Assembly (NCBI GenBank): GCA_013265495.1
Contig: MU058226.1
Span: 520,741 to 584,740, forward strand
DNA: 64,000 nt
Source: Vicugna vicugna
Lineage: Eukaryota
Direction of reading: 5' to 3'
The notes beneath the pieces were generated by a model. The model was not told the DNA's origin, searched no databases, and saw only the letters and a list, made by a program, of their open reading frames with translations. Positions 21,380 to 62,780 of this stretch are shown piece after piece (position 1 is the first letter of the stretch; the number at the start of each line of letters is the position of its first letter). The position numbers and the translations under genes are program-made.

Positions 21380-24300
21380 ATGACGGCCAGAACTCTCCTC
21401 CTGCTGCTCTCGGGGGCCCTGGCCCTGACCGAGACCTGGGCGGGTGAGCGCGGGGTCGGGAGGGAACGGCCTCTTCTGGGGAGGAGCGAGGGGGCGGCCC
21501 GGTGGGGGCGCAGGACCCCTGGGGAAGGCGCGTCTCCACAGCTCTGCCCCAGCATCCACCTCGGCCCCGCCCTGTCCCTATCCTCCCCTGTCCCTTCCTG
21601 TTTCCCACAGAATCCTCTCACCCATTCAGGTCTCGTGCCGCCCCTTTTCCGTGTTGCGAGCCCCTCGCCCCGTCCGCCCTCCTGGCCCCACCACCTGGGA
21701 CCCAGAGACCCCCGCCAGGAGGAGGGTCGAATCTCAACCCCTCCCCGCCCCCAGGCCCCCACTCCCTGAGGTATCTCTACACCGCCATGTCCCGGCCGGG
21801 CATCGGGGAGCCCCGTTTCATCTCCGTCGGCTACGTAGACGACACGCAGTTCGTTCGGTTCGACAGCGACGCCGCGAATCCGAGGATGCAGCCGAAGGCG
21901 CGGTGGGCGGAGCAGGAGGGGCCGGAGTATTGGGAAGAGAACACACAGAATGTCAAAGTTTCTGCACAGACGTTCCGACTGGGCCTGAACATCCTGCGCG
22001 GCTACTACAACCAGAGCGAGGCCGGTGAGCAATGCGGAACCAGGTCAAGGTCAGGATCCTGCTCCCCCAGTGTGGCCCCGAGTTTCCGGGTCCAAGCCTC
22101 ATCCCGGGGTCCGCCTATCTGCCCAGTGTTCCGATAAGAGCCCGCGAGGTTTCTTTTGGGTTAGTTTTCCCTTTATTCTGAAAAGGCTCTGACCAGTCAC
22201 AGCCGGGAGACTTCCTTCGGGGGCGGGGCCAAGTGGGCGGGACTAATTTCAGTGGCTGGGTCAGGGTCTCACACCTACCAGTGGTTTTGTGGATGCGATG
22301 CTGCGCTGGACGGGCGCCTCCTCCGCGGATACAATCAGTTCGCCTACGATGGCGATGATTACATCGCCCTGAACCAGGATCTTCTTTCATGGACCGCGGC
22401 GGACACGGCGGCTCAGATCACCCAACGCAAGTGGGAGGCGGCCGGTGAGGCAGAGAAGAACAGAGCCTACCTGGACGGGGCATGCGTGGAGGAACTCCTA
22501 AGATTCCTGGAGAACGGCAAGGAGATGCTGCAGCGCGCAGGTACCAGGGGACGCAGGTGCCTACTGGATCTCTCGTCTGGCTAGGACTGTTGTCCCTGTG
22601 CTAGGGGAGGAAAACGGGATCGACGCCAGAATACCGCCTCTCCTATTCATGGGGAGATGTAGGAATCCAGACCAAGTGCTCAGACTGGGTACCAAAGAGT
22701 GCCTCGCGCTTCTCTGTAGACAGTTAAGGGATCTAGCTGTTCTGGGGATGGAGGGGAAGATTATCTCTGAAACAACTTACCAGCGGTTTCTTTGACTCTG
22801 GCAGTGGCTCTGGGAACCTTGGGGAACTCTCTCAAGCCTTGTTCTCTGTCCTACACTCAGGGTGTTGGAGATCTGACTCCAGCTTTTCAGAGTCTCTGGG
22901 CCTCCCCTCAATCCAGGACCAGAAATTCCTTTTCTTGGCCTCAGAGACCTGCCTCCCATCCTGGGCTATCTCACTCATTCCAGAAATTTCTGAAGAATAA
23001 GAAATTATCCCAGATGCCTGTGTCCAGGCTGGTGTCTGGGTTGCACTTCCTTCCCACACCCCAGTTGTTCTCTCTATTCTCACAACGGTCACATGAGCCC
23101 TGCTTCATGTGGCCCATGGGAGTTACTACAAAGTTCCTAAATTCCCTCACCTTTCTCCTCAGACCCTCCAAAAACACATGTGACCCACCACCCCATCTCT
23201 GACCATAAGGTCACCCTGAGGTGCTGGGCCCTGGGCTTCTACCCTGCGGAGATCTCACTGACCTGGCAGCGTGATGGGGAGGACCAGACCCAGGACATGG
23301 AGCTCGTGGAGACCAGGCCTGCGGGGGACGGGACCTTCCAGAAGTGGGTGGCCCTGGTGGTGTCTCCTGGAGAGGAGCAGAGATACTCGTGCCACGTGCA
23401 GCACGAGGGGCTTCAGGAGCCTCTCACCCTGAAATGGGGTGAGGAGGGAGACGGGGGTGGAGCTTCTTCTCAGGTATAGCGGAAGCCCTTCTGAAGACCT
23501 TCAACAAGGTCGGGACTCAAGCCTGAGGTTGGGCCCCTTCCCTTCTCTTTGCAGAGCCACCTCCTCAGCCCACCGTCCCCATCATGGGCATCATTGTTGG
23601 CCTGGTTCTCTTTGTGGTCATTGGAGCTGTGGTGGCGGGATTTGTGATCTGGAGGAAGAGGCGCTCAGGTACATAAGGAAGGGGAGCTGAGCTTTCTAGT
23701 CTCACTTCGGGGGTGATTCAAGCCCAGGTAGATGTTTGCCTGCCTCGTTAATGGGAAGTACCATCCCCACACATGTGCTTTCCCAGTGTGGGTCCCTATC
23801 TGCTAACATTCCTTACTAAAGCATATATGAAAATGAAGGACACATTATTCACTGTGATGAATCTCGTGATGGAGACCTGATTCCCAGCAGTCTCAAAATA
23901 GAGGGAAAGGTTGATGCTGAGGACAGACCTCCAGGAGGGCAGTTGGTCCAGTCACCAAACATGTACTTTCCTTATGTTTCCTGATCCTGTCTTGGATTTG
24001 AGATCACAGTTCTGGAAACTACTCTGGGGGCCAGGACCAGGGCATTCCTTAAGACCTCATGACCCTGCTTCTTCCCTGGCCTCTCACATGATGTTTTCTT
24101 CCTACAGGTGAAAAAGGAGGGAGCTATGCTCAGGCTGCAAGTAAGTACGGAGTGAGTGTGGTTCCTGAGACCCTTGTGATGGTGGAGCCGAGAGGCCATG
24201 GGGGGACCTCACCCCCCTCAGAGTTCCATCTCTAGTTTCTCTTCTGTGGGTTCTGATCACGTCCTGGTTTTGTTCTCCCCCAGGCAGTGACAGTGCCCAG

Positions 24301-24500
24301 GGCTCTGATGTGTCTCTCACGGATCCCAGAGGTGAGACACTGGGGGCCCTAGACTGGGAGAGGGGTTGGGGCAGAGGGGATACTGTGGGTGTGGGGATTC
24401 TCAGAGTGGGACATTTTGAGCATGTGGAGGGCTGTTGAGAATGTCAGCACTTCCATGACTGACCTGAATCGGTTCCTGATTCTTTTCTTTCACAGTGTGA
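21380..24500 (+). CDS. MHC class I heavy chain, 361 aa, probably non-classical (class Ib); exons 21380-21443, 21755-22024, 22265-22540, 23163-23438, 23555-23668, 24108-24140, 24284-24331, 24496-24500
   Basis: Leader [21 protein letters not shown]; alpha1 [10 protein letters not shown]…YYNQSEA; alpha2 with C101/C164; alpha3 with the CD8 loop [12 protein letters not shown] segment; full tail [28 protein letters not shown]. Canonical exon sizes 270/276/276/33/48 and an open 1086-nt frame. Confidence 0.97.
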
Positions 24501-31469: not shown

Positions 31470-34400
31470 TCAAAAACATTGCTGAGAAATATTCCAGGTT
31501 TTCCCTTATTTAAGAAAAAAAAATTGTAAGTGATCTCAGTGGCGTTATTATTCAGTATTATTATTCTCAACCTTTTAAAGAAGCTTAAAAGTCTATGGGA
31601 CACATCTTTTCATAGCAATACATTAAAATCTATTTTACTCCTTAAAATGGCCATTTAGAATTTTATCATATGACCTTTCTTTTGGGGACAATGGAAATGT
31701 TCTTTATCTTCACTGTGGTAATGGTAACATCGATGTATAAAATTGCCAGAACTCAACCAGCTGTGCATTTCAAATAGATACATTATAGTGTATGTAAAGT
31801 GTGTCCCAACCAAGTCGGTTTTAAAACCATCCTCCTCTTTGGAATCTGTACTTTGGTTATGTAAACCAACCAACCAAAGAAAACACCTTGTTCTTGTTGC
31901 TAAGAGCTTACACCCTGCACATCTGGAAGTAGAGTCCCCATGTCTGCAACTTACTCTCAAGTGGTCCAGCTATTACTCAAGAGTAATAGCTGTCTGTGTA
32001 TTCAGAGGGAGAGCAGTTATGATACATTTTAATAAATGACAGAATTAGATAAAGAATAAATACAAAAGTTAGAAATAATAAAAAAATCTTTAAAAATATA
32101 TTTCCCCTGTAGCTTTCATCCTTGTTCTTCACGCTTCCTTTCTTCAACACTTTCTCCCTCCCTTTCCCCCCTTTTCCAGTCTCACTTACATCTTATCCCC
32201 TGCACACTGGAGCCCCACCAGCTAACGCAGGTGACTGCATCCACCTACAGGTCAGGTACCCACAGGCGAGTAGACGTCGCCAGGGCAATTTGTAAGCTAT
32301 GCCTGGACCCGCTGTTACTGGATCCTTTCAGTGAAGTCACTCCAGTCTCAGATGGAAGTCACACCAGGTCTAAATTACGTTCCCCACGGAAGTAGGCAGA
32401 ACCTCGGTGGTTATTTCCTGGATTCTTAGTCATTGATTTTCAACCAGACAGGCAGAGACGGATTCAAAGGGGACTTTCCGAGGGGACCCCTTGCTTCCTG
32501 GGGTGGGAACGAGAGGCTGGGGGAAAACGGGAAGTCATTTTTGTTCTTAGATTCAAAATGAGTCTGATTCCAGGTCCTTCTTCCGGCTCTACCGACTCCG
32601 AATTCAGGCAGGTCTTCTTTTTCACAACCGTTAGTTTGAGAACCAGAAACCTAAATGCAGCTCGCTCCCCTCCCAACTTGCACATAAGTTCCTTTATTAT
32701 TCTTTTATATCAGTGAACAACTTTTATTTCCTTCAAGGTTTGGGGAATGAGTGATTTCCAGTCCTCCCTGTGAATTCTGGCCCCGCAGACTTGAAAACAC
32801 TCCAGGGCCTCCCTGCAAAGTCCCGCCTTCGGTGATGTGAACATCCGCTCAGTTTCATTTCTGGACTCAGCGGTGAAGCCAAAAATATGCGGAGATAAAG
32901 ACGCCACTATGTTTGTGAGTCCAGGGGTACAAAGATGACAGTGGAGGGAGAAAATGCCTTTTATGGGGTAGAGCAGAGGGGGCTGGAAGGAGCATGTGGG
33001 GCAGGGAAAACACTTTGTACGAAAGACAACCTGGGAGGGGAGGGTGGGTGGGGCGGGGAGCAGCCCCAACCCTGAACCCTGTACCATCAGGGCCTCTTCC
33101 ACCCCAGAATGAATAACATTGGCTTTATCTCTGATTACAATCATCTCCAGATGCTGTGCAACAAATCTGGCATATTATTAATATTAAAGTATTGAGTCTT
33201 TTTTTTTTTTTTGGTGGGATGAACTGAATGACACAGTTTGCTGGCACTGCCACAGCTAGAAGTCCTCCAGTGAGGGTTGACATTGTGGAGCAAGGTGCTT
33301 GGGACCCGCTGTCAGGAGACCTGGGTTCCATCTGCCTCTCTATATCTCACTATCCTTCTTATCTTTAGCTGAGAATGGGTACAGGACCCAATCCCTGACT
33401 GGCTAAATAAATTATGATGCTCAAAGTAATTAACTAGTAAAAATGGATGTAAAATCTAAGAAATGGTTAGAACTTCCTAATGCATGACATTTCCATCCAC
33501 AGAAAAAGTGTAGGATAGGGGTCTTAGCGGAATGCTTAGTAATGGTAGGCAGAGTTCAACTTGAAGAAGCATTTGTAGGAAGACAAAGATGAAATGAACA
33601 CAGTTCCTGGTCCTGGAGTGGCTCATTGTCTAATGAGGGGAGTATATGATGGTCATATGGGGTTCAAGGCAGGGCATGCTGGGTACCATTAGGTTCAAAT
33701 TATGGGCTGGACCAGTGGTTCTAAGACTTGCCAGTGCATTAGAATCACCTAAGGGAGCTTTAAAAGATTTGGAGGTCTGGGTCCAACCCAAGGGATTCAA
33801 TTGGTTTTGGCCATGGCCTGGGCATACAGGTAGTAAAAACTCTCCAGCTGGTTTTTGTTTTCTTTGAAGGATAGTTGATTTACTATGTTGTTTTAATTTC
33901 TGGTGTACAGCAAAGAGATTCAGTTATATATATATATATATATATATTCTTTTTCATTATAGGTTATTATAAGATATTGAATATAGTTCCCTGTGCTAGA
34001 CAATAGGACCTTGTTTATCTATTTTTGTGTGTGTGTATATGTATTTTACATATAGTAGTTCGCTAATCCCAAACTTCTAATTTATCCCAAACCCCACCCC
34101 TTCCCCCTTGGTAACCATAAGTTTGTTTTCTATGTCTGTGAGTCTGTTTCTGTTTTGTAAATAAATACATTTGTGTCATTTTTTAGATTCCACATATAAG
34201 TAATGTCATATGATATTTATCTTTCTATTTCTGACTTACTTCACTTGATATGAGAATGTCTAGGTTCATCTATGTTGCTGCAAATGACATGATTTCATTC
34301 TTTTTATGACTGAGTAGTATTCCATTATATGTATATATCATATCTACTTTATCTAATCATCTGTCAATGGACATTTAGGTTGCTTCCATGTCTTGGCTAT

Positions 34401-35276
34401 TGTAGTGTCCAGCTGGTTTTAATAAGCAGCCAAATTTGAGGACCATAGTGTAGGTATTCCAAAGACTAAGAGATGTGTGTTGGCACAACTTTCAGTAGAA
34501 GGAGGTTTACAGGATAGCATTATTGTTATTATATTATTATCAAGATACAGTTCATATATCACATAGTTCACCCTTTTAAAGTTACAGTTAAGTGATTTTT
34601 AAGATAATTCCAAGTTTTACCACCAATCCCACTCTGTAATTGGGATGATCTTGTAGGATGTGCAGTTCTGATGGGTTGAAGGCAGAGAATAGTCCATGGG
34701 AGGGTGATGCAGAAGCAGTGGCATCCTGGTGGGACAAGTTAAGGAGATGGGCCACTTTTACTGCAACTCAGGGAACATATCACCAGAGAAGTGGGGGGTG
34801 ATGCCAGACAGCTGGTTGTGGCAGCTGGGGCATCAGTGAGGGAGCAGAGGCATTATGTGTTATATCTGCAGACAGGGCAGCTGTGGATGGCTTGGGCATC
34901 ACGGTTATAACTGAGGACAGGTACAGGTTTAGGAGACCTTTGCGGTTCTCTAGGCTGAAGTAGATGAAAGCCTGGACTAAGGTAGCTGCTGTGGGATGGA
35001 ACAGGGGTTGGGGGAGCTGATGGTGAGTCCAAGAAAGGCAGGGGGAAAGGGATCAGAGGGGACCAAGCTGGTGGTGTTGCCAGAGAACTAGGGGGACAGG
35101 GAGAGGCTGGTGTGCTGGGAGGTGTAGAGTCTGCTTGTAGACCTGTTGGATTTGAGGGGCAGGTGGCCCCAGAGGTGCAGATGTCCTGAGGCAGGTTGGA
35201 AAGGGTGTCTGGAGAGAGGTTGGCGCTGGAGTGGATCATGGGGAGTGGCCTCACTGGGCTTGTGATCCCTGTCCCC
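31470..35276 (+). repeat. Inverted segmental duplicon, left copy (partner 48188 to about 50897)
   Basis: Reverse-complement similarity traced block by block. 34769-35276 is identical to the reverse complement of 48188-48695, and both give the same 133-aa spurious ORF. Confidence 0.93.
33856..34407 (-). mobile_element. 5'-truncated LINE-1 3' end, present only in the left duplicon
   Basis: 13-bp TSD TCCAGCTGGTTTT (33843-33855, 34408-34420). Absent from the right copy near 49065. Confidence 0.88.
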
Positions 35277-38139
35277 CCACCACCCCGCTGCGGGGGCTGA
35301 ATCTAGAGGTGGCTCTGGCTAAGTCCGACACTTACCGGATGAGGCTACAGGAAAGGAGACCTGGCTGGGTCTTGGAGTCATTGGGAAGAGGAGGAGGAGA
35401 TCATAATGGTGGTAACATCTAGGAGAGTGAGGCAACTGGGGAAGTGGTTTCTGAGAGGCAGAGGTGGCTGAAATCTGCAAATAGGTCTACAAACCTGATC
35501 CCCAGTGACCCTGCCAATAATGTTGCTGTGTGTAGCTGAGGGAGGGGCTGTGGGAGCCAACACTGGGAACGAAGAAGCAGTGAAAGACCAGCCAGGTGGC
35601 TGTCTCTAGAGGAGGTTGGTGAGACCAGAGCTGCTCCTGGCGAGGAATCTCCTCTGCTGGGGAGAGTGGCAGTGATCTGGGTGCTTCTGAGGTTGGGCTG
35701 CTAACACTTAGCTGCTCAGAGCCCTTCCCTGTGGCTTTTGACTGCACTCAGCCCCAGTCACACCTCCGTGGAGATTCTTTAAAAAAAAAGTTTTCCCAAT
35801 CTGAATATGCGTAGTTTACTGTACAGCAATCATACCACAATAAAGGTGTTAAAAAAAAAAAAAAGAGGAGAAAGCTTAAACAAACAAACCAAGAAGGAGA
35901 AAAAGTTTCCAACAATAGCAACAACAACCAAAAAAAAAAAAAAAAAAAAAAAGGAGGAGAAATCCTCCAAAAGAAAAAAAAAGCTTTCCCAGCTCTCATT
36001 TTTCTCTGGTGGCTCTGGTACTAGGCCCAGCCCACTGCCTTCTCCCTGACTCATTTTGTCTGTTCATTTGGCAGGGCTCAAGGGCCTACAAGAGAATCCC
36101 TCCTTCTGATTTTTTTTTAACGCAAGTTATTTCCTCCTTCTGATTTAATTAGAAGAGTCTAGATTTTCTTTTTTAGCTGGAGAAAGGCGAATCAGATGTT
36201 TTAGTTAATTTTCTAAAGCAGCATCTCCGCTACTCAGGCAGTTCTAAGACAAAATCATTGTCACGTGGCTGGACCACGTCCTCCTGCTTCTGTCCAGCGC
36301 TGCCTTTTTTCCACCCCTGGGTACCACCGCTGGTGAGTGGGGTTCAGTGAGGTCCTCAGGCAGGAGGCTGGGGCATTTCCAGGGGTCCAGGAAGGTTTCG
36401 GTGTCACTCAAGTGTCTGTTCAGGACTGTCCTTCCCCTTTCTTCCCAATTCCGGCCTCTTCTAACAGGGAGTTTCCAGGAGGCTGTGCTCAAGGGGCCTC
36501 AGTCCCTGGAGTTAGGGACATTTTTCTAGTGACCAGAAGCTCTAGGAAGGGTCCCCCCAAAACAAGTACTTTTACTTGTTTTCTATATTAAGTAATTCTG
36601 TAACTGCATGGCAATCTTAAAAAAATTTATTTTTTTCCAAAAAAGCAGCATGTCCTACTGTAAATCTCCACTTCCATGTCACTGGCCAGAATTACATCAG
36701 ATGGGCACCCCTGACCAACCACTGGAATGAAGGTGGGGTTAATCACCTAAGCAATGATGTCAACCACATATACTTTGAACTTATATGGTTATGGTATATA
36801 CTGTTCCCATTGTTTCAATGGTCACTCAGAATTCTTTTAAATGAGGGCTGTTTTTTTCCCCTAATAGTCTAAGGTTAATTGGTATTTTGGGGGCAGAGTG
36901 GAGGTAAGAAGGTTTATTTATTTCTTTTTTTAGAGGAGGTACTGAGGCTTGAACCTAGGACCTCGTGCATACTAAGCATTTACTGTACCACTGAGCTATA
37001 CCCTCCCCCCTCCAGTGTTTTATCTTATCTTCCTCTTGAAGAGAAGATACTTAACAGGCTTTACCTTTTCTCTGAATGACTTCCCTCCAAACCCAACTTT
37101 AATAGCGTGATGGAGTTTTGGATGCAGTAATAAGCCATGTGAAAATCAGGGAAACACAGCAAGATACGCTTTGTAGTGCAGGAACCATCTTGTTCTGCAG
37201 CAGAGCTGGAGCAGAGTGCCTGGTCTCTGACTCTAGGGTGATAGGAGCCAGGTGAAAGAAAATGTTGGATATGGTGTTTCTGCTAAAACAACCCCTTTAT
37301 ATGGGTCAGCATTTTGCCTGGTTACATTTTGTAAAGCTTCACTAAAGCTCAGGTGAACACTATAACCTAACCTTTTCTCACTCCACTCTGGTCTTTACAT
37401 CCTGCCATGTAGCTCAGAACAGTCATTGTTGCTGATGCTTAAAAGGAAACTCAAGAGGAGTGACTCTCAGTCTCAAGTCAAGTTAAGGGAAGAGGAGGTC
37501 TAGAGCCGTCTTCTGAAGCCTCGTTGGGTCCATGTTCTAGGATGAGTTGAGAACAGTCACTCATGTCACTCAGCTGCTGCCCTGTCCTTTTCCATGGACA
37601 AAAATATATGACAAGATCAGTGAACTGAGAGTTCCATGCCCAAACATGGCTTGGTACTGGACTGGTAGAGACAAGGGATTGAAAAAATAAGTCCAAACTC
37701 CTTCCCTGGAAAATCTGAGTCTTACGGTCTTGTTTCCTGGTATCCCAGTTGATTCTTACCTTTACATGCTTTGTGTGATGTTTCTTCTTCCTCTAAATGC
37801 CAATTATCACAGCAACAAATACAAAAACAGTAGCCATGAATCTCTGCCACAATCCCTAAATTGCGGGCATGCCTGAAATGGGATTGTTACACTGAAGATT
37901 TCTGCATGCCCTCTCTCTTTCTCTCTCTGTTTCTTCAAGAGAGGAAATAAAAACATGGAGCAATGCCTTCAAAATTCAGAAGGAAGAATCCTGGCACGGA
38001 ATTCGTCACCTAGCCAAACGATCCATCAAGCCAAAGAATAATACATTTTGAAGTACCTATCGTGTACTTTAAATATGCTCATAAGAAACCACTAAAATAT
38101 TAATTCCACCAAAATGAGAGAAGGTGTAAAATAGAGGAA

Positions 38140-38620
38140 GTGTGCATATCCACATTAATTGCAGCATTTTTCACAAAAGCCAAGAGGCGGAAGCAACCTG
38201 TTTGTGCATTGACAGATACATGGATAAAGAAAATGTGGTATACACGTATAATTGAATATTATTCAGCTGTAAAATGAAGGAAATCTTGTCATTTGCATGG
38301 ATGAGCTCTCAGGACATTATACTGAGTGAAATAAGCCAGTCACAGAAGACATACTGCATGATTCCACTTACATAAGGTACCTAAAGTAGTCAAACTCTTA
38401 GAAACAGAAAAGATAATAGTGGTTGCCAGGGACCAGTGGGGAGAGAAGCCTGGAGAGTTTTTGTTCAATAGATAGAGAGTTTCAGTTTTGCAAGATGAGA
38501 GAGTTCTAGTGATCTCAATAATTTATTTATTTAATATTTAACACCACTGTACTGTACACTTAAAAATGGTTAAGTGCTAAATATTACCTTATGTGTTTTT
38601 TTACCACAATAAAGTTACTT
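38140..38620 (+). mobile_element. LINE-1 3' end (old L1M-type)
   Basis: tggataaagaaaatgtggtatac…gaaataagccagtcacagaag…tacacttaaaaatggttaag…aataaa. Confidence 0.75.
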
Positions 38621-38677
38621 AACCCTATTACTCATTGTAAAAGAAAACACATTAATTAATTAAAATGTATTCATGTG

Positions 38678-38807
38678 AGGGGAGGGCATAGCTCAAGTGG
38701 TAGAGCACATGCTAAGCATACTCAAGGTCCTGGGTTCAATCCCCAGTACTGCCTCTAAAAACAAATAAGTAAACCTCATCACCTTCCCCTACAAAAAAAT
38801 TTCTTTT
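38678..38807 (+). mobile_element. Vic-1-type SINE
   Basis: 14-bp TSD AATGTATTCATGTG (38664-38677, 38808-38821). Confidence 0.9.
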
Positions 38808-41771
38808 AATGTATTCATGTGGATTTACCATTAAAAAAAAAGAGAAGAGAAAGAAGTAGACTACAGAAGACTGGACATACAACACAGAAGAAAGACGCAA
38901 GATACTTTCTACCTCAGCTACCAAACACGGACCAGCAGAATCAGCACTGCATGAAAACCAAGCTCACAGTTCCCATCCTTGGCACTCTTAATCAATCTGC
39001 ATCTTAGTAGGATGCCCAGGTGACGCCACTGCACTTAAAAACCCTGCCAAGATGGCGGTGGAGGGAGATCCCTAGGAGGGTGGCTCTGCTCCAGATGTAG
39101 AAGAATCCAGCCCAGGTGGGAACACGTCAGAAGGGCCCAGGAGGGATAGTTCTAAGAAGGAAAAATTGATAGAATACCCAAAGTATCCTCACTTCTTGAA
39201 AGAGTCATCCAAATAGAAGAAATGGCAAAGTTGAATTAGTGACAGCTACGTAGAAAATAATCAGACGAAAACAAAGGCAATTATTAACTCCAGGGAGAAC
39301 AAGAGGTTGTGCAGAAAGTGAGAAGTAGTAGAGTTTACATACGAGAGCATTAGTCATGGAAAAGAAAACACTGAGTCAGCTAAACATGATTCCCATTTAA
39401 ATATACTGGGAAAAAGAAGGAATGGGAAGAATGAAAGGAAACAATGACTATTAACTATTGCATCAGCCACTGTTGTGATGCAACCGACAGTGGCTGCAGC
39501 AGAAAAATCAAGCAGCAGTAGTAAAGGCATGGTGTTTAGAGATTTGGAAGTAAAAGCCAAAGGAATCAGCTGAAAAATATTGAAAGCAGTCACCTCTGGG
39601 AAGGCAGAAATTGAGAGGAAACAGACAGGACTACAATATAGTACATTTCATGAGAAATCTTGTGCAGATATTTGACTCCTTAACTTACAGGCAATTGTGC
39701 CTTTGATTAAAATAACCACAAAAAAATTGAATGGGTATAAAATTTTATGCTTAGTGACAACTGACGACAACAAATGATACTTGTGAACTGACTAAAAAGC
39801 AAGAATACTCAAATGGAAACATACATGCACAGGTGTGTGGATGGCATCAATCCTGAATAAAAACGTGAAAGAATTTGTCAATATACACAAAGCTGGGTAA
39901 ATAGATGGGTGAATGAATTCTTTATCCCAGCCACCTTACCGTGCACCTTATGAACCAGGGAGAGAGGGAACAGTACCTGACTAGGACCCTTCATCATCAT
40001 CTTGCTTCCAGGCAGGTCCTGCTGCAGAAGGCACTCCCCTCAGCTGCTTCCAGTCTGTGGGAGGTCCCCCCTAGCCCACTCTGCCATCAGTGCTTTACCT
40101 GGGCGGGGCTAAGTTTGTCCTGACTGGAAAAAGCACTACGCACACGCATGCCCCAAGACCAGAAGTTAGGAAGGACTAAGCATCAGGTGGATAAATATCT
40201 CACCTCCCCATTTGCCTTGCAGAAATCATTCTGAACTGATGGAGAGACATGCTGATGTATGACTGATTCACTCACATTCCGTGTTCCTTTACTCTCTCAT
40301 CAGCCTAGTCCTCAGCAGTCACTTCACCCCAGGAGCAGACAGACCCCTATTCTTATAATCAGGAAACCCCAAAGCAACGTCCCTGTCCCCTCCCCTAATG
40401 TCACTCTTCAGCTCTGCTTCATCACATGAGGGTTCCAACTATTCAGGGAAGATTTCCCCCTCAGGGGCAGCCCCTGAACATTGGCCCAGGCGTTCCATTG
40501 CATCTTCTCCCAGCCCTGTATGCTTCTGTTGTGACTCTGTCAGTCACTGGGAGCTGGAGGGGTCAGGGGGAGCAGAATTTTCAGTGCTGCCTCGAGGCAT
40601 GGAGATATACCTCTCCTTCTCTGATATCCCTTTCCAGACCCAGGAAATAAAACATAGACCAGATATGTGTGTTTAAAGAGCATTAAAATTTATAACGTGA
40701 AATTATAAAGATACTGCAGAGTGAAGTAATGGATATACAAGTGCGACGGGGGTGAAGGGAACATCAGGTTTCCAGAAACCTACAATAAGTCTCCTCAGGA
40801 GGAGCGGCAATGAAGGAATTTACAGATAAATCTTATTTATAATAATATAACCAGTCCATTTAATATATTACTCTAATATAATAAGAATAGTGTTAAATAG
40901 TGTGGAGCAGCTGGAAGCACCTCATATATATTCCAGTTTTAGTCCTATGAACCTCACTTGGAAATAAACAGTTTTTCTCATTTTGTGGATGAGGAAACTG
41001 AGGTATCAAGAGGGAAATTTCCAGTCAGACCAGAGTGGGGAGCTGAATTTAGGCCTCCCAGGTGCAGAATCTAAGCTCCCGCAGTTGAATTGATCTGACT
41101 ACGAAGACTTAAATTCCAGTTGTGAGGCTACTACGGCGGTGTGGAGCCAGGTCTTGTAGGCTAATGTGCTCTGGAAAAAAAGAGAAACCAATAAATAAAT
41201 GACCAACTGGTTGCAGAATATTGCTTTCTATTCCCTTAGAGATTCTCCTTCAGTTGCTCCAAAATCAGACTCTGCCTTTCTCCGAGGGACGACGACACTC
41301 CTCCTTTGTTCCCGCTCACCCCACTGTCCCCCGCCCTGGCTGGAATCCTCCCCTGCCTCCCTCAACATCATCACCTGTCCCTGCTTCCAGAACCCTCCAT
41401 GCAAGGGACAAAAGTCCACAGGACTAGAGGACAAGATCCAGGAGTGGACACTTCAGTCCAGATGCCTCCCTCGACCTGGTGCCAGGCTGCCCACCAGACA
41501 GACCCTGGCTCCATGTTCCTCCAGGCCTGGGAATGGACACACACACAACTCCTTTCTCTCCTCACTTCTCAGGCCGCTTCACCTGCGCCAGCACCTGCAT
41601 CTCAGGCCCTGACCTCCCACCTGCAGCCCAGCCTCCTGCCTTCCCCAGGCCCTGAGCCAGTAGCTCCTCACTGGAAAGCCCACTGGGAAGCCCAGGTGAC
41701 CTGCAGGCCCAACTAGAAAAACTGGGCCGCCCCAGGCTCTGTACCTGACCTGACCCTGGAGCAGCCCCTGC

Positions 41772-41965
41772 TCACAGAGGCCTGGCCCCGCCCCGCCCCT
41801 CACTCCCCACCCAGGCTCTCGGGCTGCACTTGGCCTTCCCTGCTCCTTCCTGGTCCACTGGCTCCTGAAATCTCAACTCCACCCCAAGTGCTGCTGCTTG
41901 GCGAAGCTGCACGTCCCTCCTGCCCTGTTCCAAGCAGGGATTCAACCAGGACCTGCCCTCACTAC
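41772..41965 (-). other. Vestigial MIC cytoplasmic exon 6 (now 3' UTR)
   Basis: Acceptor CCCCTACAG|GTAGTGAGGGCAGGTCCTGG… resembles MICA exon 6 (GCAGGTCCTGG; LRFQ versus LGFQ). It is in frame with exon 5 beyond the TGA. Confidence 0.65.
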
Positions 41966-42405
41966 CTGTAGGGGACCTGCTTCTCAGTGTGGCTAGACCT
42001 CTGATTCCAGGATCACCTAGACCCTCGCAACCAGCACATGATCCAACACATCCCCCTAGATGAGGCCTGGCGGGCCTGAGAGTAGCAAGAAAGGGATGAA
42101 AACAGAGCACACAACCGTCACTGCCACCCAGTCTCATCCAGAGCAAGGAGAGGCCCCAGCCAGACTCTAAGGGCCCAGCCTAGCCCTGGCTTTGAGCGGG
42201 GCTGAGGGCTTAAAGCAGATGTGGCTCCCATTCCCCTCACAAATGTCCATCACCCACTTCTTGTTGCAGAGGCTTGTTATCTTCTCGTTTCTGTGCAGAG
42301 GGGCATCTAGGGGACCCTACATCCTAGGCAGAGCACCCCGCTTCCCTCCCTCTGCCCAGATTTCTTACCTGGGCTCTCCACAGCTGATGTCGTCGTCTTC
42401 TTGGA

Positions 42406-45400
42406 TCAAAACATGATGGAAATAACACAAACCACAGCAGCAGCCAGAATCAGCCATGGGCTCCAGTGCATCAGGGTATTTCCTGGGAAAGAGCCTTCTT
42501 ATAATCCTGGCTCCCTCTCCCCGACCCTGGTCTCTGACCCTCCCAGGGATCACCCCAGCCTCACCAGAGGACGCAGGGTGTGCACTGTGATTCCCGCTGT
42601 GGTCCTCGTGGCACGTGAACCTCTGCTTCTCTCCTTGGGGAATATTTATGGTCACCCAGGTCCAGTAAGTTCCGTTCCCATCAGGCAGGACACCCCCAGA
42701 CTGCTGGGCATCCTGGTTCACGCGGTCCTCATCCTGAAGCCAGGCCACTGAGATATTCCGGGGAAAGAAGCCAAAAGCCCAGCAGGACAGGTTGACCCTG
42801 CCCTCCAAGGCCTGGCTGAGGGTCACGTTCACTGCTGGAGGCACTGGGAGCACAGGGCCAGTGAGGCTTGTGGCCACACCCTGCTCCCCTCTAAGGGAGA
42901 CGAGAGAATGGGGCTGCTCCCCACTACCTCTCCAACTCTGGCTGAGCCCTCACCCACCCCAGCCCTTCTCCAAGTCTGCTCGACACCCTGGGGCCCAGTT
43001 CCTTTAGACAGGCAGGAGGATGGGCCGAGACTGGATCTACATGTGATGCTGAGGAGGGAGATGTGAGGGCTGGGCTCTCAGGGACCAGGAGGGAACCTGC
43101 TGTGACAGAAAGGCTGGGAGCCAGGGGGCCGACCCCCAGTCTAGGAGCTTCCTCTCCTGCCTGACACCCACCTTCCCTGGGACAGTTTTCTGTCAGAGGG
43201 CCCGCTGCTTCCCTGGATTACTGTCACTGGGATGGTTCCTTCCCCTCCCCTCCTGTACCTGCCCGTCTCTCTACAGATGTTTAACAGAACAGCAAATCGC
43301 AACACAACATGCCAATGCGACATACATGCACCCGGACTGTAGGGAGGGTTTCTGTGGGCAGAGCTGGGGCGGGGAGGCTCCAGGGGTCTGGGACAGGAAG
43401 GCCCCGGCCCAGGGTCAGTACCTGTTCTGTCCGTGAAGCCCATCCGGGACTCCACGTAGCTCTGCAGTCTTGCACAAAGCTCTCCCTGCACATGGGCCCG
43501 GTAGTGCTTGCTTTGAAAGCCATCCGTGTCCCAGGACTTCTTGATTTCCATGGCCAAGGTCTGATCCAGGGACTGGGGCACTCTACATCCATGGGTCTCC
43601 AGGTGACAGGAGAGGAAGAGCTTCCCATCATAGCAGATACTCCTGAAGCCCCTGGCCTGGCCATCTTCTCGGATTTCACAGCCCACAGTCTCCTGCAGGG
43701 AATGCAAGCCTGCCCCCACCGAGCAGTGACCCTCCGGTTCTGGTTCCATGTCCTTCTGCCCTTCGGCCCAAGTGAGAAATTCCAGCCAGAGGGCTCCCTC
43801 TCTGCTGCCCTCCATGTCTTCCCTGTGCGGGCTGAGTCATGGTCACCTCCCTGCTGACTTCACAGACCCCCCTTCCTCAGCATTCCCCTCCCCCACCAAA
43901 TCCAGGGAAAAGAGACAGATCCCTGTTCTGGGCCCAGACTTGCCTGGGAAATGCCTCACAGCACTTTCGCCCCTTCCCCACTCTCACCTCCTTTCTCCTC
44001 CTGCAGGGACATTGTTTCTGCCAGAAGTTGTCTGAGGTCCCTTCCATTCTCTGTCAAGTCCTTGATCTCTGTGTCCCACGTCTCAGCTGCAAAGTCTTCT
44101 GCCCACGGTCCCTGGGGCTCTGCCCTGCCCTTCCCACTGTCATAGTGCAGGAAGGCCTGACCATCCAAGCGTCCCTCAGCTGAAAAGCTCGGCTGCACAA
44201 ACCCGTCCTGGCACAGCACTGTGAGGCTGTAATGGAGACTGTGCGATCCTGGGGAGGACGGAGTGCAGGTGAGACTGCTTTCTGGAAACGAGGGCCCATC
44301 AAATGTTGAACAGAAAGGTTCTGCTGTCCTGACCTTCTCCAGATCTCAAGGATGCACAACAGGCATGTGTACCGAGGGACGAGAATGAGGATTTCCACAC
44401 AGGAATAAAAGGAAAGGAGAAAGGAAGGAGCTAGGAACTGAGGAATGAATTGGGGGAGGAGGACAGAGATGGCAAACATGTAGGACAGGTGCCAGGACAG
44501 GGCAACACTGGCTCCCTAAGGGTCCAGGTAAGAGGTCCGGGGAGAGGCTGGCCTGCGGAGGAAGGGAGAGGCAGAGAGAGGCAAGAAGACCAGGGTGAGG
44601 GGAGGTGGACCAGAAGGGAGGCAGGGGCCCTAGCAGGCCCAGGATCAGAGGGGCCCACCTGGCAGAGGGCTCCTTGGTCAGGGGTGGGTCAGGGGTGGGT
44701 CAGGGTGAGGTGGAGAGCGAGGCCTGCTGTCTGTGGTGAAGGCTCACTGGGGACAAGGTGGAGTCAAGGGAGGGTGAGGCAGGAGGCAGAGGGGCCTGCG
44801 GGGCTGGCTTGTGGCACTAACAGAGTTTCAGGTAGGCCAGTGCCCCCCGGGGGAGCTGAAGGAGGGGGTCTGGGTCCAGAGTGCAAGAGGCATGGTGAGG
44901 CCCCACTTAGGGAGGGGAATAAACCTGCCAGTGTGCCCTGGGGAGAGGTAGGTGTTGAGGGATTCAAAGGGTCAATGCAGTGTGCCCAAGGACCATCTAG
45001 AATTAGAAGGAGGGGCTGGCAAGAGAAAATAGAACTTCAGTGCCTAGTGCACATTGGAAAGGACCTACATGGTGGGAGTGGTTTGGGGGGCAGGTCTTAC
45101 CCCACAGAGGGGTAGGGTCAGACATCCAGTGCAGGAGGGGTGGTGCTGGGAGAAGGCCCCTGTAGGGAAAGGCCAGCCCACCAGGTGGCATAAACAAGGA
45201 CTTTGGATACATGATTGAGGTAGTGATAGCTCACTGGGGTCAAGGGACCAAAGAAGATATTGAAGGCCAAGGAGCTGGGCAGTTGGACCAAGGATTCTTT
45301 CAGGGGGAAGGGTTGCAGAGGGGATCATGCCTGGGATTGGGGTACAGGGGATGAGTGGGGCTCAAGGGTGACTCTGGGAGACCTTGGGTTAGGGTGAAGA

Positions 45401-48002
45401 CAGAACAGGAGGAGTGCTCTGGGTGAGGGACCTTGAGAATACTGGTTCCCAGAGGAGGGGGCTTGTGACTGATGAGAACTTGGTGAGGGTCCAAGGCAGG
45501 TGGGCAGGGGTGGGAGCAGGGTAAGGTGCCATAGGGGGAGGTGCAGAGGGACCAGGGCAAGTGCAGTCCAGCACCTGTGGGGTGGAGAGTGGAGGCCTCA
45601 AGAGGGTGAGTTCAGCAGCATGCACAAAAGTAAACTCAAAATGGCTTAAAGATTTGAATGTAAGACAAGACACTATAAACTTAAGCCTCTTAGAAGAAAA
45701 CATAGGCAAAACATTATCTGACATAAATCTTAGCAGTGTTCTCCTAAGGCAGTCTACCCAGGCAATAGAAATAAAAGCAAAACTAAACAAATGGGACCTA
45801 ATTAAACTTATAAGCTTTTGCACAGCAAAGGAAACCATAAACAAAACAAAAAGACAACCTACGGAATAAGAGAAAATATTTGCAAATCATGTGACTGACA
45901 AGGCTTAATTTCCAGAATATACAAACAGCTCATATACTTTAATAACAAAAAAAGAAACAACCCAATCCAAAAATGGGCAAGACCTAAACAAGTAATTTTC
46001 CAATCAAGGTATACAAATGGCCAATAAGCGCATGAAAAAATGCTCAGTATCACTAATTTTTGGAGAAATGCAAATCAAAACTACAATGAGGTATCCACAC
46101 CAGTCAGAATGGCCATTATTAAAAAGCCCACAAAAGATAAATGCTGGAGAGAGTGTGGAGAAAAGGGAACGCTCCTACACTGCTAGTGGGAATGTGGTTT
46201 GGTGCAGCCGTTATGGAAAACAGTATGGAGATCCCTCAAAAAAACTAAAACTAGACTTACCATGTGATCCAGCAATCCCTGGGCATATATCCAGAGGGAA
46301 CTCTAATTCGAAAAGATAAATGCACCCCAGTGTTCATAGCAGCACTACACACAATAGCCATGACATGGAAACAACCTAAGTGTCCACTGACAGGTAATTG
46401 GATAAAGAAATTGTGCTGCATCTTCTTTGTCCATTTATCTTTTGACGTGCACTTGGGATGCTTCCATGGCTTAGCAACTGTAAGTAGTGTTACTATTAAT
46501 GGTGGGGTGTGTGTATCTTTTTGAAGTAGTGTTTTTGTTTTTCTTAGATGTATGCGCAGGAGTGGAATTGCTGGGCCATGTGATGGTTCTGTTTTTGGGT
46601 TTTTAAGAAACCTCCATATTGTTTTCCATAGTGGCTACACCAATTTACATCCCTACCAACAGTTTTCAAGGGTTCCCTTTTATCCACATCCTTGTCAACA
46701 TTTGTTATTTGTGTTCTTTTTGATCATGGCCATTCTGACAGGTGTGAGATGATATCTCGTTTTGATTTTGATTTGCATTTCCCTGATATTAGTGATGAGA
46801 AGTTTTTCATATTCTTGTTGGCCATCTACATTTCCTCTTTTGGAAAAACGTCTGTTCAGTTATTTTGCCCATATTTTAAATGGGTTGTTTGTTTGCTTTT
46901 TAATTGAAGTACAGTTGATTTAAAATGTTGTATTAGTTTCTGGTGCACAGCATGGATGGACTTGGAGGGCATTGTGCTGGGTGAAATGGGCCAGACAGAG
47001 AAAGACAAGTACTCTAAGACATCACTTACATATGGAATCTAAAAAAGTACAACAAATACAACAAACTAGTTGAATATAACAGAAAAGAAACAGACTGGCA
47101 GATGTAGAGAAGGGACGAGTGGTTACCAGTGGGGAGAAGGAAGGGGGAGGGGCAAGATGGAGGTGGAGGATTAAGAGGTACAAACTATCTGGTCTAAAAT
47201 AAGCTATAATATTGTACATCAACTATACTTCAATTTAAAAAATATGATATTGTAAAATAAATATATAAATAAAATTTTAAGTGGTTTTAAAAAACTCAAA
47301 AAGGAAAGAAAAAAAGAAAAGAAATGTGGTCGGCACTTGGGCCCTTCCTGGAGCTCCCTAGTCACTAAAAAAAGGCCTTAAGTCCAGGGACTGAGGTTCC
47401 TGGAGCACTGTCTGCCTGGAATTTCCTTTTACCCACAGGCAGCGCAGGGAAGAAGGCTGGGCAGAAAACAGCAAGAAAAAACAGTGCTCAGGCATCTGAG
47501 AGGGCAAAATCCCCCTCAAACGGGAAGGAATTGGTAAACTCCAGCATCGGGGTTGGGGGAGCGGCGTCGTCGGGGTGATGGTGGGGGGAACACGGGTGTG
47601 GGGGCAGCCTTCCGACCCAGGGGTGTCAGAGGACTCAGGTCTGAAGAAGAGGAAGGAGGGAGGGACGGTGGGTGCAGCCCGAAAAGAAGCTGGAAAGAGT
47701 GCAGAAGCCAGACTGAGCTGTGACGGGAACAGGCGGCACCCGGCTTCCGGCCCCCTCCCCGACCTTACCCTACCTCTCCCCATCTCCCCCAGCTCTTACC
47801 CCGTTCCCCGCTCCCCGCTCCCCACCCGCGCCGCACCGCCAGTGAGTCGGTCCCCTCGACGCTCAAGAATTCCACGGGACCCCTGAAGCCGCCCCAGGCT
47901 CCCGGCTGCGAAGCTCAATGAACCCCACTCACCGGCTGTGGCACCTGGGGTTAAAAGAAGGACAACAACGGCTGGAAACATCAGGACAAGGAGAAGCCTC
48001 AA
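42406..48002 (-). CDS. MHC class I chain-related (MIC-family) NKG2D ligand; exons 48002-47933, 44248-43988, 43709-43422, 42843-42565, 42482-42406 (stop); 324 aa from TTG or 317 aa from ATG 47981
   Basis: alpha1 [16 protein letters not shown]…LDGQAFL…PQGPWAED…[17 protein letters not shown]; alpha2 [16 protein letters not shown]…YDGKLFLS…QTLAM; alpha3 VPPAVNVT…[12 protein letters not shown]…[13 protein letters not shown]. All align with MICA/MICB. Phase-1 GT-AG introns; exons of 70/261/288/279 nt. Orthology to MICA versus MICB cannot be assigned. Confidence 0.9.
45620..47320 (+). mobile_element. Composite LINE-1 insertion in MIC intron 1 with an internally inverted segment
   Basis: 45620-46410 is sense ORF2 ([15 protein letters not shown]…[16 protein letters not shown]); about 46415-46950 is antisense; about 46950-47320 is sense 3' UTR with an A-rich tail. 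Confidence 0.85.
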
Positions 48003-48187
48003 GGCCTAGACTTTTCCAGCCTCCCGGAGGCTGCAACCCAGCAACAGAAGGCGCCGGGACGGAGCGCTCAGTGCGGCAGTCCTGAGCAACTCCACAAGTT
48101 AGCCTGAAAGCACGCCTCCCGGCCTGGCTGGGAGACTAAACTGCAGCCACTGACTCAGCCACGGGGGCGGGGCAGGGACCGCGGGGA
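48003..48187 (-). promoter_or_regulatory. MIC CpG-rich proximal promoter/5' UTR
   Basis: GC box GGGGCGGGGC (about 48164-48172) and AP-1 TGACTCA (48151-48157). CpG-rich from about 47730 to 48190. Confidence 0.65.
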
Positions 48188-50897
48188 GGGGACAGGGATC
48201 ACAAGCCCAGTGAGGCCACTCCCCATGATCCACTCCAGCGCCAACCTCTCTCCAGACACCCTTTCCAACCTGCCTCAGGACATCTGCACCTCTGGGGCCA
48301 CCTGCCCCTCAAATCCAACAGGTCTACAAGCAGACTCTACACCTCCCAGCACACCAGCCTCTCCCTGTCCCCCTAGTTCTCTGGCAACACCACCAGCTTG
48401 GTCCCCTCTGATCCCTTTCCCCCTGCCTTTCTTGGACTCACCATCAGCTCCCCCAACCCCTGTTCCATCCCACAGCAGCTACCTTAGTCCAGGCTTTCAT
48501 CTACTTCAGCCTAGAGAACCGCAAAGGTCTCCTAAACCTGTACCTGTCCTCAGTTATAACCGTGATGCCCAAGCCATCCACAGCTGCCCTGTCTGCAGAT
48601 ATAACACATAATGCCTCTGCTCCCTCACTGATGCCCCAGCTGCCACAACCAGCTGTCTGGCATCACCCCCCACTTCTCTGGTGATATGTTCCCTGGGTTG
48701 CAGTAAAAATGGTCCATCTCCTTACTTTGTCCCACCGGGATGCCACTGCTTCTGCATCACCCTCCCATGGATTATTCTCCTCTGCCTTCCAACCCATCAG
48801 AACTGCACATCCTACAAGATCATCCCAAACAGATGGTGGGGAAGGTGGCACAACCTTGGGATCATACTAAAACCCACCTAACTGTATGCTTTAAAAAAAA
48901 GAATTATGTGATATATGAACAATATCTCAATAATAATAATATAATAACAATAATGCCACCCTTAAAGCTTCCTTCTACTAAAAACTGTGCCTTATTGCCA
49001 ACACACATCTCTTGGTCTTTGGAACATCTAGCCTGTTGTTCTCAAATTCGGCTGCTTATTAGAACCACCTGGGGAGTTTTTACTATCCATATGTGTAGGC
49101 CATAGCCAAAACCAATTGAATCAGTATCCCTTGGGCTGGCCTTCGTATTTTTTAAAGCCCCCTCAGTGATTCCAATGTGTAGGCAAGTTTTAGAACCACT
49201 GGTCTAACCCTGGTTGAAACCTCCTTGATGGTACCAAGTCTGCCCTGCCTTGAACCCTATCTGACCATCTTACACTCCTCCCATAAGCTAACAAGTCACT
49301 TTAGGATCAGGAACTATGTTCATTTCATCTTTGTCTCCCTGTAGATAAATGCTTTTTTCAAAGTTGTACTCTGCCTCTCAATACTAACCATTCCACTAAG
49401 CTCCTTATTCTACACTTTTCCTGTGAGTGAAAATGTCAGGCCTCAGAAAGCTTTAACAATTTCTTAGATTTCATATTATTTTTATTAATTAATTACTTTC
49501 ACCATCACAATTTATTTGGCAGTTCAGGGATTGGGTCCTGTCCCATCTCAGAGAGATTCTTTTCATTGCTGAAATTCACAAGGGTAGTGAAAGTATAGAG
49601 GTAGATGGAACCCAGCTCTTCTGAAAGCTGGACCCAAACCCTTTCCTCTGTGTCAGTCCTCCTTCAAAGACTTGCTAGCTGTGGCAGCTCCATCTAACTG
49701 TCTCATTCAAGTCACCGCACCACCCACCCTTCAAAAAAAAAAAAAACTTAATGCTAGGTTTGTTCCACCACATTTGGAGGTGATTGCAATAAGAGAAAGC
49801 CAACTACTGGGATGTGGGAGAGGCCCTGATGGTCTAGGACTGCAGATTTAGGGTTTTCTCCTGGATCTAGCCATGGCCGCCCCTCCCCCATCAAGCAAAT
49901 AGCCCGGTGAGTACTGACTTCCTGGTGGGTAACTGACCTGTCCCAAGTGAGTCAGGTATGTTCGTGGGTTCGAATATGCAGGGGATAAGCTGTAAAGCAG
50001 AGAGTGGGAAAAGGAGGGAGCGAAGGGGAAAAGGCTGAAGAAAGGAAGAGAGAAGAAAAAGAGAGAGAAAAGCTACCGGGGAAATAAAATTTTAACGATA
50101 TAATTTTATGATTTCTGACTTTCATTTTTATTCTTTATTTATTTTATTCTGTCGTGTATTCGTTTTGTTATAGGTGTTTGAGTTCTGTCTGAATATGTAA
50201 ACAGCTATTATTGTTATTGGGGGACCACTTGAAAGAAAGTTGCAAACATCAGGACCCTTTAACTTCAAATGTGCAGGGTGTAGCTCTTAGAAACAAGAAC
50301 AAAGTGTTTTGTTTGTTTCTTTTGTTTACCTAAGTATAAATTACAAAGAGGATGGTATTTTTAAAACTAGCTGTGGTGGGGAATGTATGGCTCAGTGGTA
50401 GAGTGTGTGCTTAGCTTGCACGAGGTCCTGGGTTCAATCCCTAGTACCTCCAAATTTTTTTTAATTGAATAAATAAATAAACCTGATTACCTACCCCCTC
50501 CAAAAAAAGAAAAAACTTCTTTCATTTAAAATATAAAATTAAATAAATAAATAAAACCAACTTTGAAGGGACATAATTTACATACAACATAATGCATCTA
50601 TTTGAAATGCACAGCTGGTTGAGTTTTGGCAACTTACACGCCCACGTCACCATTACCAGAATAAAGATATAGAACATTCCTACTGTCCCCAAAGAAAAGC
50701 CTTGTGACATAATTCCATGCAGCCAATATAAGTAATAAGATAGATTTTAATGTGTTGCTATGAAAAGATGTGCCCAAGACACGTTTAAGCTTTTGTAAAA
50801 GCTAAAGAACATGCTGAATTATAATGCCACTAATACCACTTACAAAATACATTTTAAATAGAGGAAAACCTTGAAGATTTCTCACCAAAGTTTTGAC
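48188..50897 (-). repeat. Inverted segmental duplicon, right copy (MIC upstream region)
   Basis: Reverse-complement match to 31470-35276. It carries its own SINE (about 50378-50550) and lacks about 750 bp present at about 32300-33040. Confidence 0.93.
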
Positions 50898-54578: not shown

Positions 54579-56315
54579 GGGTGTGGGGTTATAGTTCAGT
54601 TGGTAGGGTACATGTTGAGTATGCACAAGCTACCTGGTTCCATTCCCAGTAACTCCATTTGTTTTTTGTTTCTTAATCTTTTAAATTTTTCATACTTTAT
54701 TATTTGTATTGATAGGTTAAGAAAGTAGAATTTTCCTAAGTACTGTTTCATAGATAATGTTCATAAGCAGCACACAAAACATTCAGTTTCACAAAGAGTA
54801 ATGTTCAATGATCCCTCTAAATGCAGTTTTAATCGTTTCTTTAAGCTAAGTGCAAGAATAATACAATAAGCTCAATACACACAAAACCTGTATATGTATA
54901 TCCTGAACTACAAAAGTGGTTTCCACAGCCATGTATGGTTTTAGTCAGGAACACATTTTCACAGTGAACAAGTACTAACAAATATGTTAATAAAAAGTTA
55001 CTGCAAATGCTTATTCTGCCATCAGCTTTTTCAGCAACACCATTCCTGCTGCAGAAGGCACTTATTAGAAGCTTTAATCTGGACCTAGGAAAATGAGTTC
55101 TCTTAAAAATTGACAAATAGTGTATTATAAGGTTTTAAATCAAATAAGCCTTCCAACACAAAAGCAGTCACATAAAACTTTTAGTTTCTCAAAAAATAAG
55201 AAACAAAAAAATTTAAAATCACTCTTGTTATCTAAAGAAAAGAGTATTAAAACAAATTATCTTAAGACAAATAAACACTCCTACAAAAGGCTGTATTTTC
55301 TTATATCATTTTCTCCTTAAAAGAAACACAAATCAGTTCACTACCTTTTAATAACTTCTTTGACTACTGTAGTCTAAAAACTTTAGAATACATGAAACAT
55401 GTCTTTATGAGCGATCATAAAGTCAAAGGTGCCTTTTAAATTTCATGTATTAAACAGCTACAGTACAGCCTACAATGGCACAAATACACCTAACATATAA
55501 ATACTACTTCATTTAAATGGTCAAAAGTCAGAAGGAACTGAACGGTTTGCAAGGTACTTTGACATATATGTGGTCATTAAAATCCAATAAGTAATTCAAG
55601 TCTGGTAATATAATGGCAGGCAATTAAAGGCTCAAATATCACTCTAAAATCAAAGACATGAAAATTAAGACTGAAAACTTTGTGGTTCTCCACCTTTCAT
55701 TCACATGGCTAGATATCAGGACCTTACTGTGAAAAATACAGTTATTAAATGTGGTTTCCCCAGAAGACAATGAAGCTTCAGAAAGTACAAAAGGTGTCAA
55801 GACCCACAGTTTGCTTCATCAAATGCTTTTCTAGCTTGTTTCAATTCTTCATTCCTAGTAAGCAAGTCTTTAAACCTAGCAAACTTTCTTGGGTCCTTTC
55901 AAATCAAAAACGGTATCTTCAATTTGTACAAGACCTTGTCTTCCAATTGACATTGCCTTGTGAGTCGTTGCAGTGATGAACTCTATGACAAGGTCTTCAA
56001 GAATATCCACTGACTCAGTATAAGGATTCTGGTCATCCCCAAACCCATACACCATATATCTTAATTCTTTAGAAAAAAGTCTCTTTCTTTCACCCTGTCT
56101 ACCTTCTGTACCTCTTCCAATTTCTTCATTTTCTTCTTCAAACCGATTCTGAACTTGGCCTCCGCTACTGTGCCCAAAGGGGTAAGGGAAAAAGCGGGCT
56201 GGAACAGAGGTGTTCACTCACAGTGAGGTCTTCTTCACCTGCCATTCCACCAGCCTGCCACCTCCAGCAGCCTCCTGCTTCTGCGTGCCCAGTACCTCCA
56301 TTTGAAAAACTAAAA
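54579..56315 (+). mobile_element. Vic-1-type SINE split by the TAF13 retrocopy
   Basis: Head at 54579-54660 and tail after 56288. Own TSD taaaaccaa(c/t)a(c/t)ta at 54565-54578 and 56316-56329. Confidence 0.85.
54662..56287 (-). pseudogene. TAF13: TAF13 processed pseudogene (CDS remnant 56245-55797, long 3' UTR, poly(A) remnant)
   Basis: MAGEEDLT…FEEENEEIG…RKRLFSKELRYMVYGFGDDQNPYTESVDILEDLVIEFIT…HKAMSIGRQG with a frameshift near 55905. AATAAA at 54701-54696. TSD CCCAGTA(A/C)CTCCATTTG at 54645-54661 and 56288-56304. Confidence 0.95.
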
Positions 56316-61600: not shown

Positions 61601-62039
61601 TAATGACTTGACTCTGCTTCCGGTCTCCTCCAGGCCTGCAGAGAGCTTGGCCTTGGCAGGAGTGACGTGGCCTACCCTTCAGGTGTAACTCCACCAGCCA
61701 GAGCAGCCCAGGAGGGGGCTGGCTAGGAGTCCAGACAAACTGAACTGGCCATTAAGGTTCTGGGTCAGACTCCAGGCAAACACGGGACTGACCAGGCTTA
61801 GGTCTGGATCCAAGCACCCACCCTGCCTCTGGCTCTCCCTCTGGAATGGGGCTCTTGCCCAGGAAAGAAACACACCACCTAGAGCAACTAACCGATTGTA
61901 ATCTAAAAAACAGAGTTGTGTTGTTTAGAGGGAAATGGGGAAGGTGTTTTAGGGGTTGATGGGAAGACAGGTGTTCAAGGGCTCTATGGACCACATGGGG
62001 AAAGGGGCTGCTGGGCGCCTAGAGGGCGGCGAGCCCGGG

Positions 62040-62674: not shown

Positions 62675-62780
62675 TTTAGGGCAAGTTTGGGGAGCAGACA
62701 GACAGGCATCATCCCAAACAGACAGTCTGAAATCTATTCTCTTGCAAACAGAATCAAGGACTAGGCCAGCAGCCTGAGCC
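62675..62780 (+). promoter_or_regulatory. POU5F1: POU5F1 upstream conserved region CR3
   Basis: …GAAATCTATTCTCTTGCAAACAGAATCAAG… at the expected spacing between CR4 and CR2. Confidence 0.6.

Follow-up and report, generated by a model that had tools for sequence, protein, structure and literature searches.

The DNA analysed here, a 64,000-nucleotide stretch of Vicugna vicugna (hereafter the window), is the mammalian MHC class III/class I border. Named from their translations, a DDX39B-like gene presumably occupies 0.4-9 kb and a MCCD1-like gene lies near 10.5 kb. At 21300-24400 on the plus strand, between the MCCD1-like DNA and the MIC pair described below, lies an MHC class I gene (Pfam MHC_I) whose alpha1 frame is open, and a TAF13-like retrocopy was recognized at 55876-56217 on the minus strand (Pfam TFIID-18kDa, E 2e-17). 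By its motifs, we take 61900-63500 to resemble the POU5F1 upstream enhancer region; this putative enhancer region is located on the right side, some 14 kb away from the MIC promoter.

The gene under study is, as judged from its sequence, a MIC (MHC class I chain-related) gene. The best PDB matches of alpha1 and alpha2 were human MICB/MICA structures (E 8e-28 and 7e-17, respectively), alpha2 showed 95-96% identity to dromedary MICB models (14 of 18 candidates passed), and the exon layout was class-I-like, with an Ig C1-set alpha3 (Pfam). The open frame comprises 317 residues in five coding exons; it starts with the ATG at 47981 and stops directly after the membrane helix. The first-pass annotation had placed the entire MIC gene between two perfect repeats, which holds for the coding exons, while the 3' end (poly-A site) was not located. 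The gene is made up as follows:

48003-48187, minus strand: MIC proximal promoter and 5' leader, 185 bp, GC 0.67 (predicted, motif matches only)
47933-48002, minus strand: MIC exon 1 (leader), codon 1 TTG, in-frame ATG at 47981 (alignment)
43988-44248, minus strand: MIC exon 2 (alpha1) (alignment, PDB match)
43422-43709, minus strand: MIC exon 3 (alpha2) (alignment, PDB match, dromedary models)
42565-42843, minus strand: MIC exon 4 (alpha3, Ig C1-set) (alignment, Pfam)
42369-42482, minus strand: MIC exon 5 (transmembrane), stop at 42408-42406 (alignment)

Predicted promoter motifs were a GC box at 48170 and an AP-1-like site at 48157, and simple-pattern searches of 47982-48700 for heat-shock, NF-kB, CCAAT and TATA elements gave no match. 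The dromedary MIC models P0002 and P0003 end at the same point as the MIC of the window, the deer MIC proteins P0007 and P0009 are longer (383-405 residues), and tail-like codons persist downstream of the stop; camelid MIC may lack a cytoplasmic tail. With regard to the leader, codon 1 is TTG compared to Met in dromedary P0003, and the in-frame ATG is codon 8. At least 15 changes in 69 bases are needed to turn exon 1 into the dromedary leader, compared to 5 in 258 for alpha1 and 4 in 285 for alpha2; this excess may reflect fast leader evolution, a third source of exon 1 or an error in the model. Within intron 1, 45935-46911 is a 70% self-inverted stretch, which we take to be, probably, two opposed L1 pieces.

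The old inverted duplication and its MIC relic

Beyond the perfect repeats, diverged homology had been noted between the two sides of the gene. This was recovered as four aligned blocks at 80-82%, with 1345 of 1652 columns identical; in left coordinates, they cover 31473-31807 (81%), 31818-32215 (80%), 33083-33851 (82%) and about 34409-34641 (82%). Two copy-specific insertions had been named as well. The SINE announced near 50378 of the right arm appeared as expected, as an alignment gap with a tRNA-like head at 50381-50452 by Rfam. As for the L1 of the left arm, the left-only insertion itself was confirmed by a 13-bp target-site duplication, and 33856-34407 is presumably an L1. No target-site duplication was found around the right-only SINE or around the left inner insert (35277-36262). 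The arms and their insertions are:

31473-34639 (31473-32215, 33083-33851 and 34409-34639), plus strand: left arm of the old duplication, 80-82% (alignment)
48828-50894, minus strand: right arm of the old duplication (alignment)
about 33856-34407, no strand assigned: left-only retroelement insertion (13-bp target-site duplication at 33843 and 34408)
50378-50560, plus strand: right-only tRNA-derived SINE, 3' end approximate (alignment gap; Rfam tRNA match 50381-50452)

The first-pass annotation had missed that homology resumes between the repeats, as a relic of MIC exon 1 and part of intron 1 at 36263-36633. Here, 36267-36388 aligned to 47998-47877 (MIC exon 1 and donor) at 72% over 123 columns with a score of 100, compared to a maximum of 43 in 200 shuffles. 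The relic exon 1 has 23 open codons, the first of which is ACG, and tblastn with the three domains detected no alpha1-alpha3 remnants downstream of it in 36334-41600. The left inner parts are the following:

35277-36262, plus strand: left-only DNA in the place of the relic's promoter, 986 bases (no significant match to 48003-48187)
36263-36388, plus strand: MIC relic with a 70-bp exon 1, ACG in the start-codon place, intact donor and start of intron 1 (alignment)
36439-36633, plus strand: MIC relic, intron-1 block (alignment to MIC intron 1)

Compared with the 185-base MIC promoter, 35277-36262 reached a local score of 26, where shuffles gave 23+-3 and 56 of 300 scored equally high. Long A-rich runs are present in this left-only DNA at 35780-35990. 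Since the left arm contains a MIC relic, the old duplication, on the evidence of the alignments, sets a MIC gene opposite a truncated version of it; the perfect core is upstream DNA common to both.

The core repeat and its copies in related animals

The claim at the root of this work was a perfect inverted repeat on either side of MIC. Positions 34769-35276 indeed matched the reverse complement of 48188-48695 in 508 of 508 bases, with 0 mismatches, and no extension of the match was possible on either side, so that these coordinates are exact. A run of 508 matches would occur by chance with a probability of 1e-49 to 1e-36 at a flank identity of 0.80-0.85. Differences numbered 0 of 508 in the core and 307 of 1652 in the flanks (Fisher p=2e-39). 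Three levels of identity were distinguished, namely the core at 100%, a shoulder at 94.5% and the old arms at about 81%. The shoulder (127 columns, with 7 substitutions and 2 indels between the copies) differed both from the flank (p=5e-5) and from the core (p=1e-5), and the total stretch with more than 90% identity between the arms amounts to 637 bp.

34769-35276, plus strand: left copy of the 508-bp perfect core, upstream of the MIC relic (exact match; contig of run X12 with the same ends)
48188-48695, minus strand: right copy of the 508-bp perfect core, upstream of the MIC gene (exact match; contig fork)
about 34640-34768, plus strand: left shoulder, 94.5% to the right shoulder, candidate older conversion stratum (alignment)
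48696-48827, minus strand: right shoulder (alignment)

The core, which resembles and may be a decayed L2 element, has a GC content of 0.57, compared to 0.34-0.43 in the outer flanks and 0.56 in the left inner flank. Biased conversion was considered as the cause of the rise in GC from flank to core and was rejected, the left inner flank being equally GC-rich. G-quadruplex-like runs were found close to the inner core edges and none wholly within the core.

Whether the two cores differ in the underlying reads had been set as the test for an artefact of assembly or polishing, in which one core is overwritten by the other. A word search of public runs with 47300-50340 listed 24 runs, 20 of which shared at least half of the words (0.81-0.95); these 20 carried five organism labels, came from seven studies and were all contigs, none from RNA. 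Four of the 20 (X1, X4, X8 and X12; four labels, four studies) were aligned to 34410-35770 at 80% likeness. Run X1 and the source of the window may be related; X4, X8 and X12 come from other studies. The four animals are closely related: in about 500 bases of the left inner flank, they show 0-2 differences from the window.

In all four runs, core contigs forked at 35276, where one branch entered the left inner flank and the other was a loose end that matched the right inner flank exactly over its first 30 bases. In run X12, the core was a single contig with ends exactly at 34769 and 35276. The left-only inner DNA, checked over 35247-35770, was likewise present in the four runs. Core/flank depth was 1.64, 2.21, 1.88 and 2.25 in X1, X4, X8 and X12, respectively, per-contig depth not being the same as copy number, and at 80% likeness a second, diverged contig on the core was detected in none of them. 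Gaps in contig coverage (34410-34639 in three of the four runs, 34727-34768 in X12, and the right outer flank) were not counted as absence. As far as contigs allow, the proposed test thus gave two real copies in each of the four runs.

It is true that the perfect identity comes from one assembly, and that the left outer flank at 34410-34639 was covered in just one of the four runs. However, an overwritten core is highly improbable in view of the single core contig that, in every run, was joined to both inner flanks at approximately double depth with no diverged second contig. The roughly 95 differences expected at flank divergence are thereby excluded, although a few could hide, as each lowers core depth by only 3%.

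Runs X1 and X4 each had one contig over 34640-35276, which was right-type at six shoulder sites in X1 and all left-type in X4. These single contigs of shoulder and core could represent longer tracts or collapsed bubbles, the expected depth ratio being 1.81 versus 2.0 and the observed values 1.64 and 2.21, and were left aside as evidence.

Among the four runs and the window, a small sample, variable sites numbered 3 of 508 in the core (34776, 35076 and 35273) and 3 of 494 in the left inner flank. The core is thus as variable as the neighbouring DNA, and therefore selection does not explain its identity. Purifying selection on both cores as a regulatory, coding or RNA element might be suspected from their position next to the MIC promoter and from a GC content above that of the outer flanks (0.57 vs. 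0.34-0.43), and both could alternatively be copies of a young transposon. Apart from the equal variability of core and flank among animals, several observations make these explanations very improbable: Rfam gave two SINE tRNA heads and no other family in 31000-51500, none of the three frames that overlap the core had a Pfam match, the longest open frame was ordinary (62 of 500 shuffles), and one of the two core copies serves a relic. With regard to a young transposon, a search of the window found no third core copy, and depth in the runs was only about double.

Run X8, in which the shoulder bubble was uncollapsed, was informative on how the copies differ. Both of its shoulder contigs had the left-type base at 34768, which could also be explained by the right copy having newly mutated in the other animals; its left-type contig had a private base at 34776, and the contig that enters the left inner flank had a private base at 35273. 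The pattern at these three sites suggests that differences between the copies come and go, and the perfect 508 bases are a snapshot of a patch that is at least about 99.5% alike in relatives. At 35076, three of the four core contigs had A and both window copies have G. This is suggestive of a joint switch of both copies; since contigs collapse single-base bubbles, a collapsed bubble would look alike, and one or both copies may carry A.

Probable gene conversion between the arms

Taken with the old age of the arms, a perfect core had been said to call for recent conversion or crossover. In line with this, we observed three strata of identity and a core as mutable as its flank, and the fork recurred in four of four runs. 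Recurrent ectopic (interlocus) gene conversion between the inverted paralogues is the probable explanation, where the mechanism, the occurrence of more than one event and the break sites are what we infer. The comparison behind this reading covered the window and the four closely related animals.

The old inverted duplication would have placed a MIC gene (minus strand) opposite a 5'-only relic (plus strand); the homologous DNA upstream of each measures about 3 kb. Repeated ectopic conversion would then have transferred the promoter-proximal part of this DNA from arm to arm, a break in one being mended with the other, 13 kb off on the same or the sister chromatid, as template. The tract end at 35276/48188 would be sharp because homology ends there, and outer tract ends would vary, which would give the strata at 100%, 94.5% and 81%. 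By corrected divergence, the shoulder event lies at approximately 27% of the duplication's age, and the core was last homogenized at less than about 3% of it.

Once above the minimal processing segment, the core would maintain its own recombination competence. The human minimal segment for gene conversion is given as 337-456 bp (PMC3966225), which is exceeded by the 508-bp core, and mammalian conversion tracts are described as usually a few hundred bases and seldom above 1 kb (PMC3961182). The identity usually needed to start conversion is about 92% (PMC3966225), and the arms here, at 81%, are far below this value, so the core has either long been kept alike or was born of a rare event.

A single recent template switch, or one long conversion of 508 bp with no ongoing exchange, would account for the sharp inner edge. 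It would also be in agreement with an inner edge that is the same in the four runs and an outer edge that is the same in X12, as from a common ancestor. However, the 94.5% shoulder requires a second, older event (p=5e-5 vs. flank), and the outer border of the core differs in one animal (X8), which makes a single event quite unlikely.

The proposed conversion shares with known interlocus gene conversion a patch of near identity, a few hundred bases long, in nearby duplicates, above the minimal segment, and differs from it in that the duplicates are about 81% identical instead of the usual 92% or so, the patch is non-coding and the partner is a relic (PMC3966225). A short near-perfect core (782 bp, 99.9%) in older inverted duplications of related genes is also described for HsInv0209 at KRTAP5-10/5-11; in that case, identity between the duplications is 94% and both orientations have been genotyped, in contrast to 81% and one known orientation here (PMC3961182). 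In HsInv0030 at CTRB1/CTRB2, exchange between inverted paralogues likewise re-pairs upstream DNA with gene bodies, but swaps first exon as well as promoter between two expressed genes, with eQTL support (PMC6748972), whereas here the point of exchange would lie upstream of the promoter, with a relic as partner. As in the MICA/MICB family and camel MIC, the gene lies between DDX39B/MCCD1 and the class I region and has alpha1, alpha2, alpha3 and transmembrane exons (PMC6829570). Pig MIC-1, which makes no protein, and MIC-2 are similarly a non-coding copy beside a coding one (PMC9693445). What sets the gene described here apart is the predicted lack of a cytoplasmic tail, along with its head-to-head relic.

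The process as such is well known, and what is unusual here are the strongly diverged surrounding arms and the relic partner. The repeat was not described in the literature found on camelid and artiodactyl MIC; the main camel class I paper, which lay outside this search, may describe the relic.

Possible inversion and its meaning for camelid MIC

A crossover between the cores would flip 12,911 bases (35277-48187), with MIC and the relic both inside. Recurrent inversion is compatible with conversion, in that some exchanges would be crossovers and both orientations would segregate today. Human MICA and MICB point towards DDX39B, the same as the intact gene here, which we counted against inversion.

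On the one hand, the geometry is inverted and the repeats at both ends are highly identical (508 bp exact; 637 bp above 90%), with sufficient length for a flip of 12.9 kb. Repeats at human NAHR inversions range from 654 bp to 24.2 kb with more than 90% identity, and the 637 bp are just below the 654-bp minimum of the 24 inversions concerned (PMC6748972). HsInv0209 itself probably breaks in the 782-bp, 99.9% patch inside its 94% duplications (PMC3961182). On the other hand, neither a joint nor a strand change was observed in the four runs, which is of limited weight since contigs ending at the core would not reveal one. The ratio of repeat to spacer is low (0.04), and the frequency of human inversions rises with that ratio (PMC6748972). 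In the consulted part of the camel MHC synopsis, alpaca and camel organization is near-identical and the word 'inversion' is absent, gene-level synteny being a weak test (PMC6829570). Altogether, we regard segregating orientations as possible though unlikely.

The coding exons and the proximal promoter of MIC would come through a flip intact. A large effect on expression is not expected and is less likely than the first-pass annotation implied, because both the 185-bp promoter and an identical 508-bp core would stay with MIC before it met DNA that is about 81% identical. It is equally doubtful that the 12.9-kb segment with the window's only intact MIC undergoes recurrent flips among South American camelids via a 508-bp repeat maintained by conversion and sustained by a dead paralogue. 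If this were true, an NK-cell ligand gene would lie, depending on orientation, by the side of the class I gene or by that of the putative POU5F1 enhancer, and MIC orientation alleles would escape SNP-based MHC typing.

Recurrent conversion would make this locus a clean, strata-dated case of recombination sustained, at the promoter of an immune gene, between paralogues otherwise too diverged (81%). In practice, short-read assembly, variant calling and promoter PCR of camelid MIC will mix two loci here. Should both orientations exist, the camelid MHC would have a hidden structural allele, one that PCR could type at low cost.
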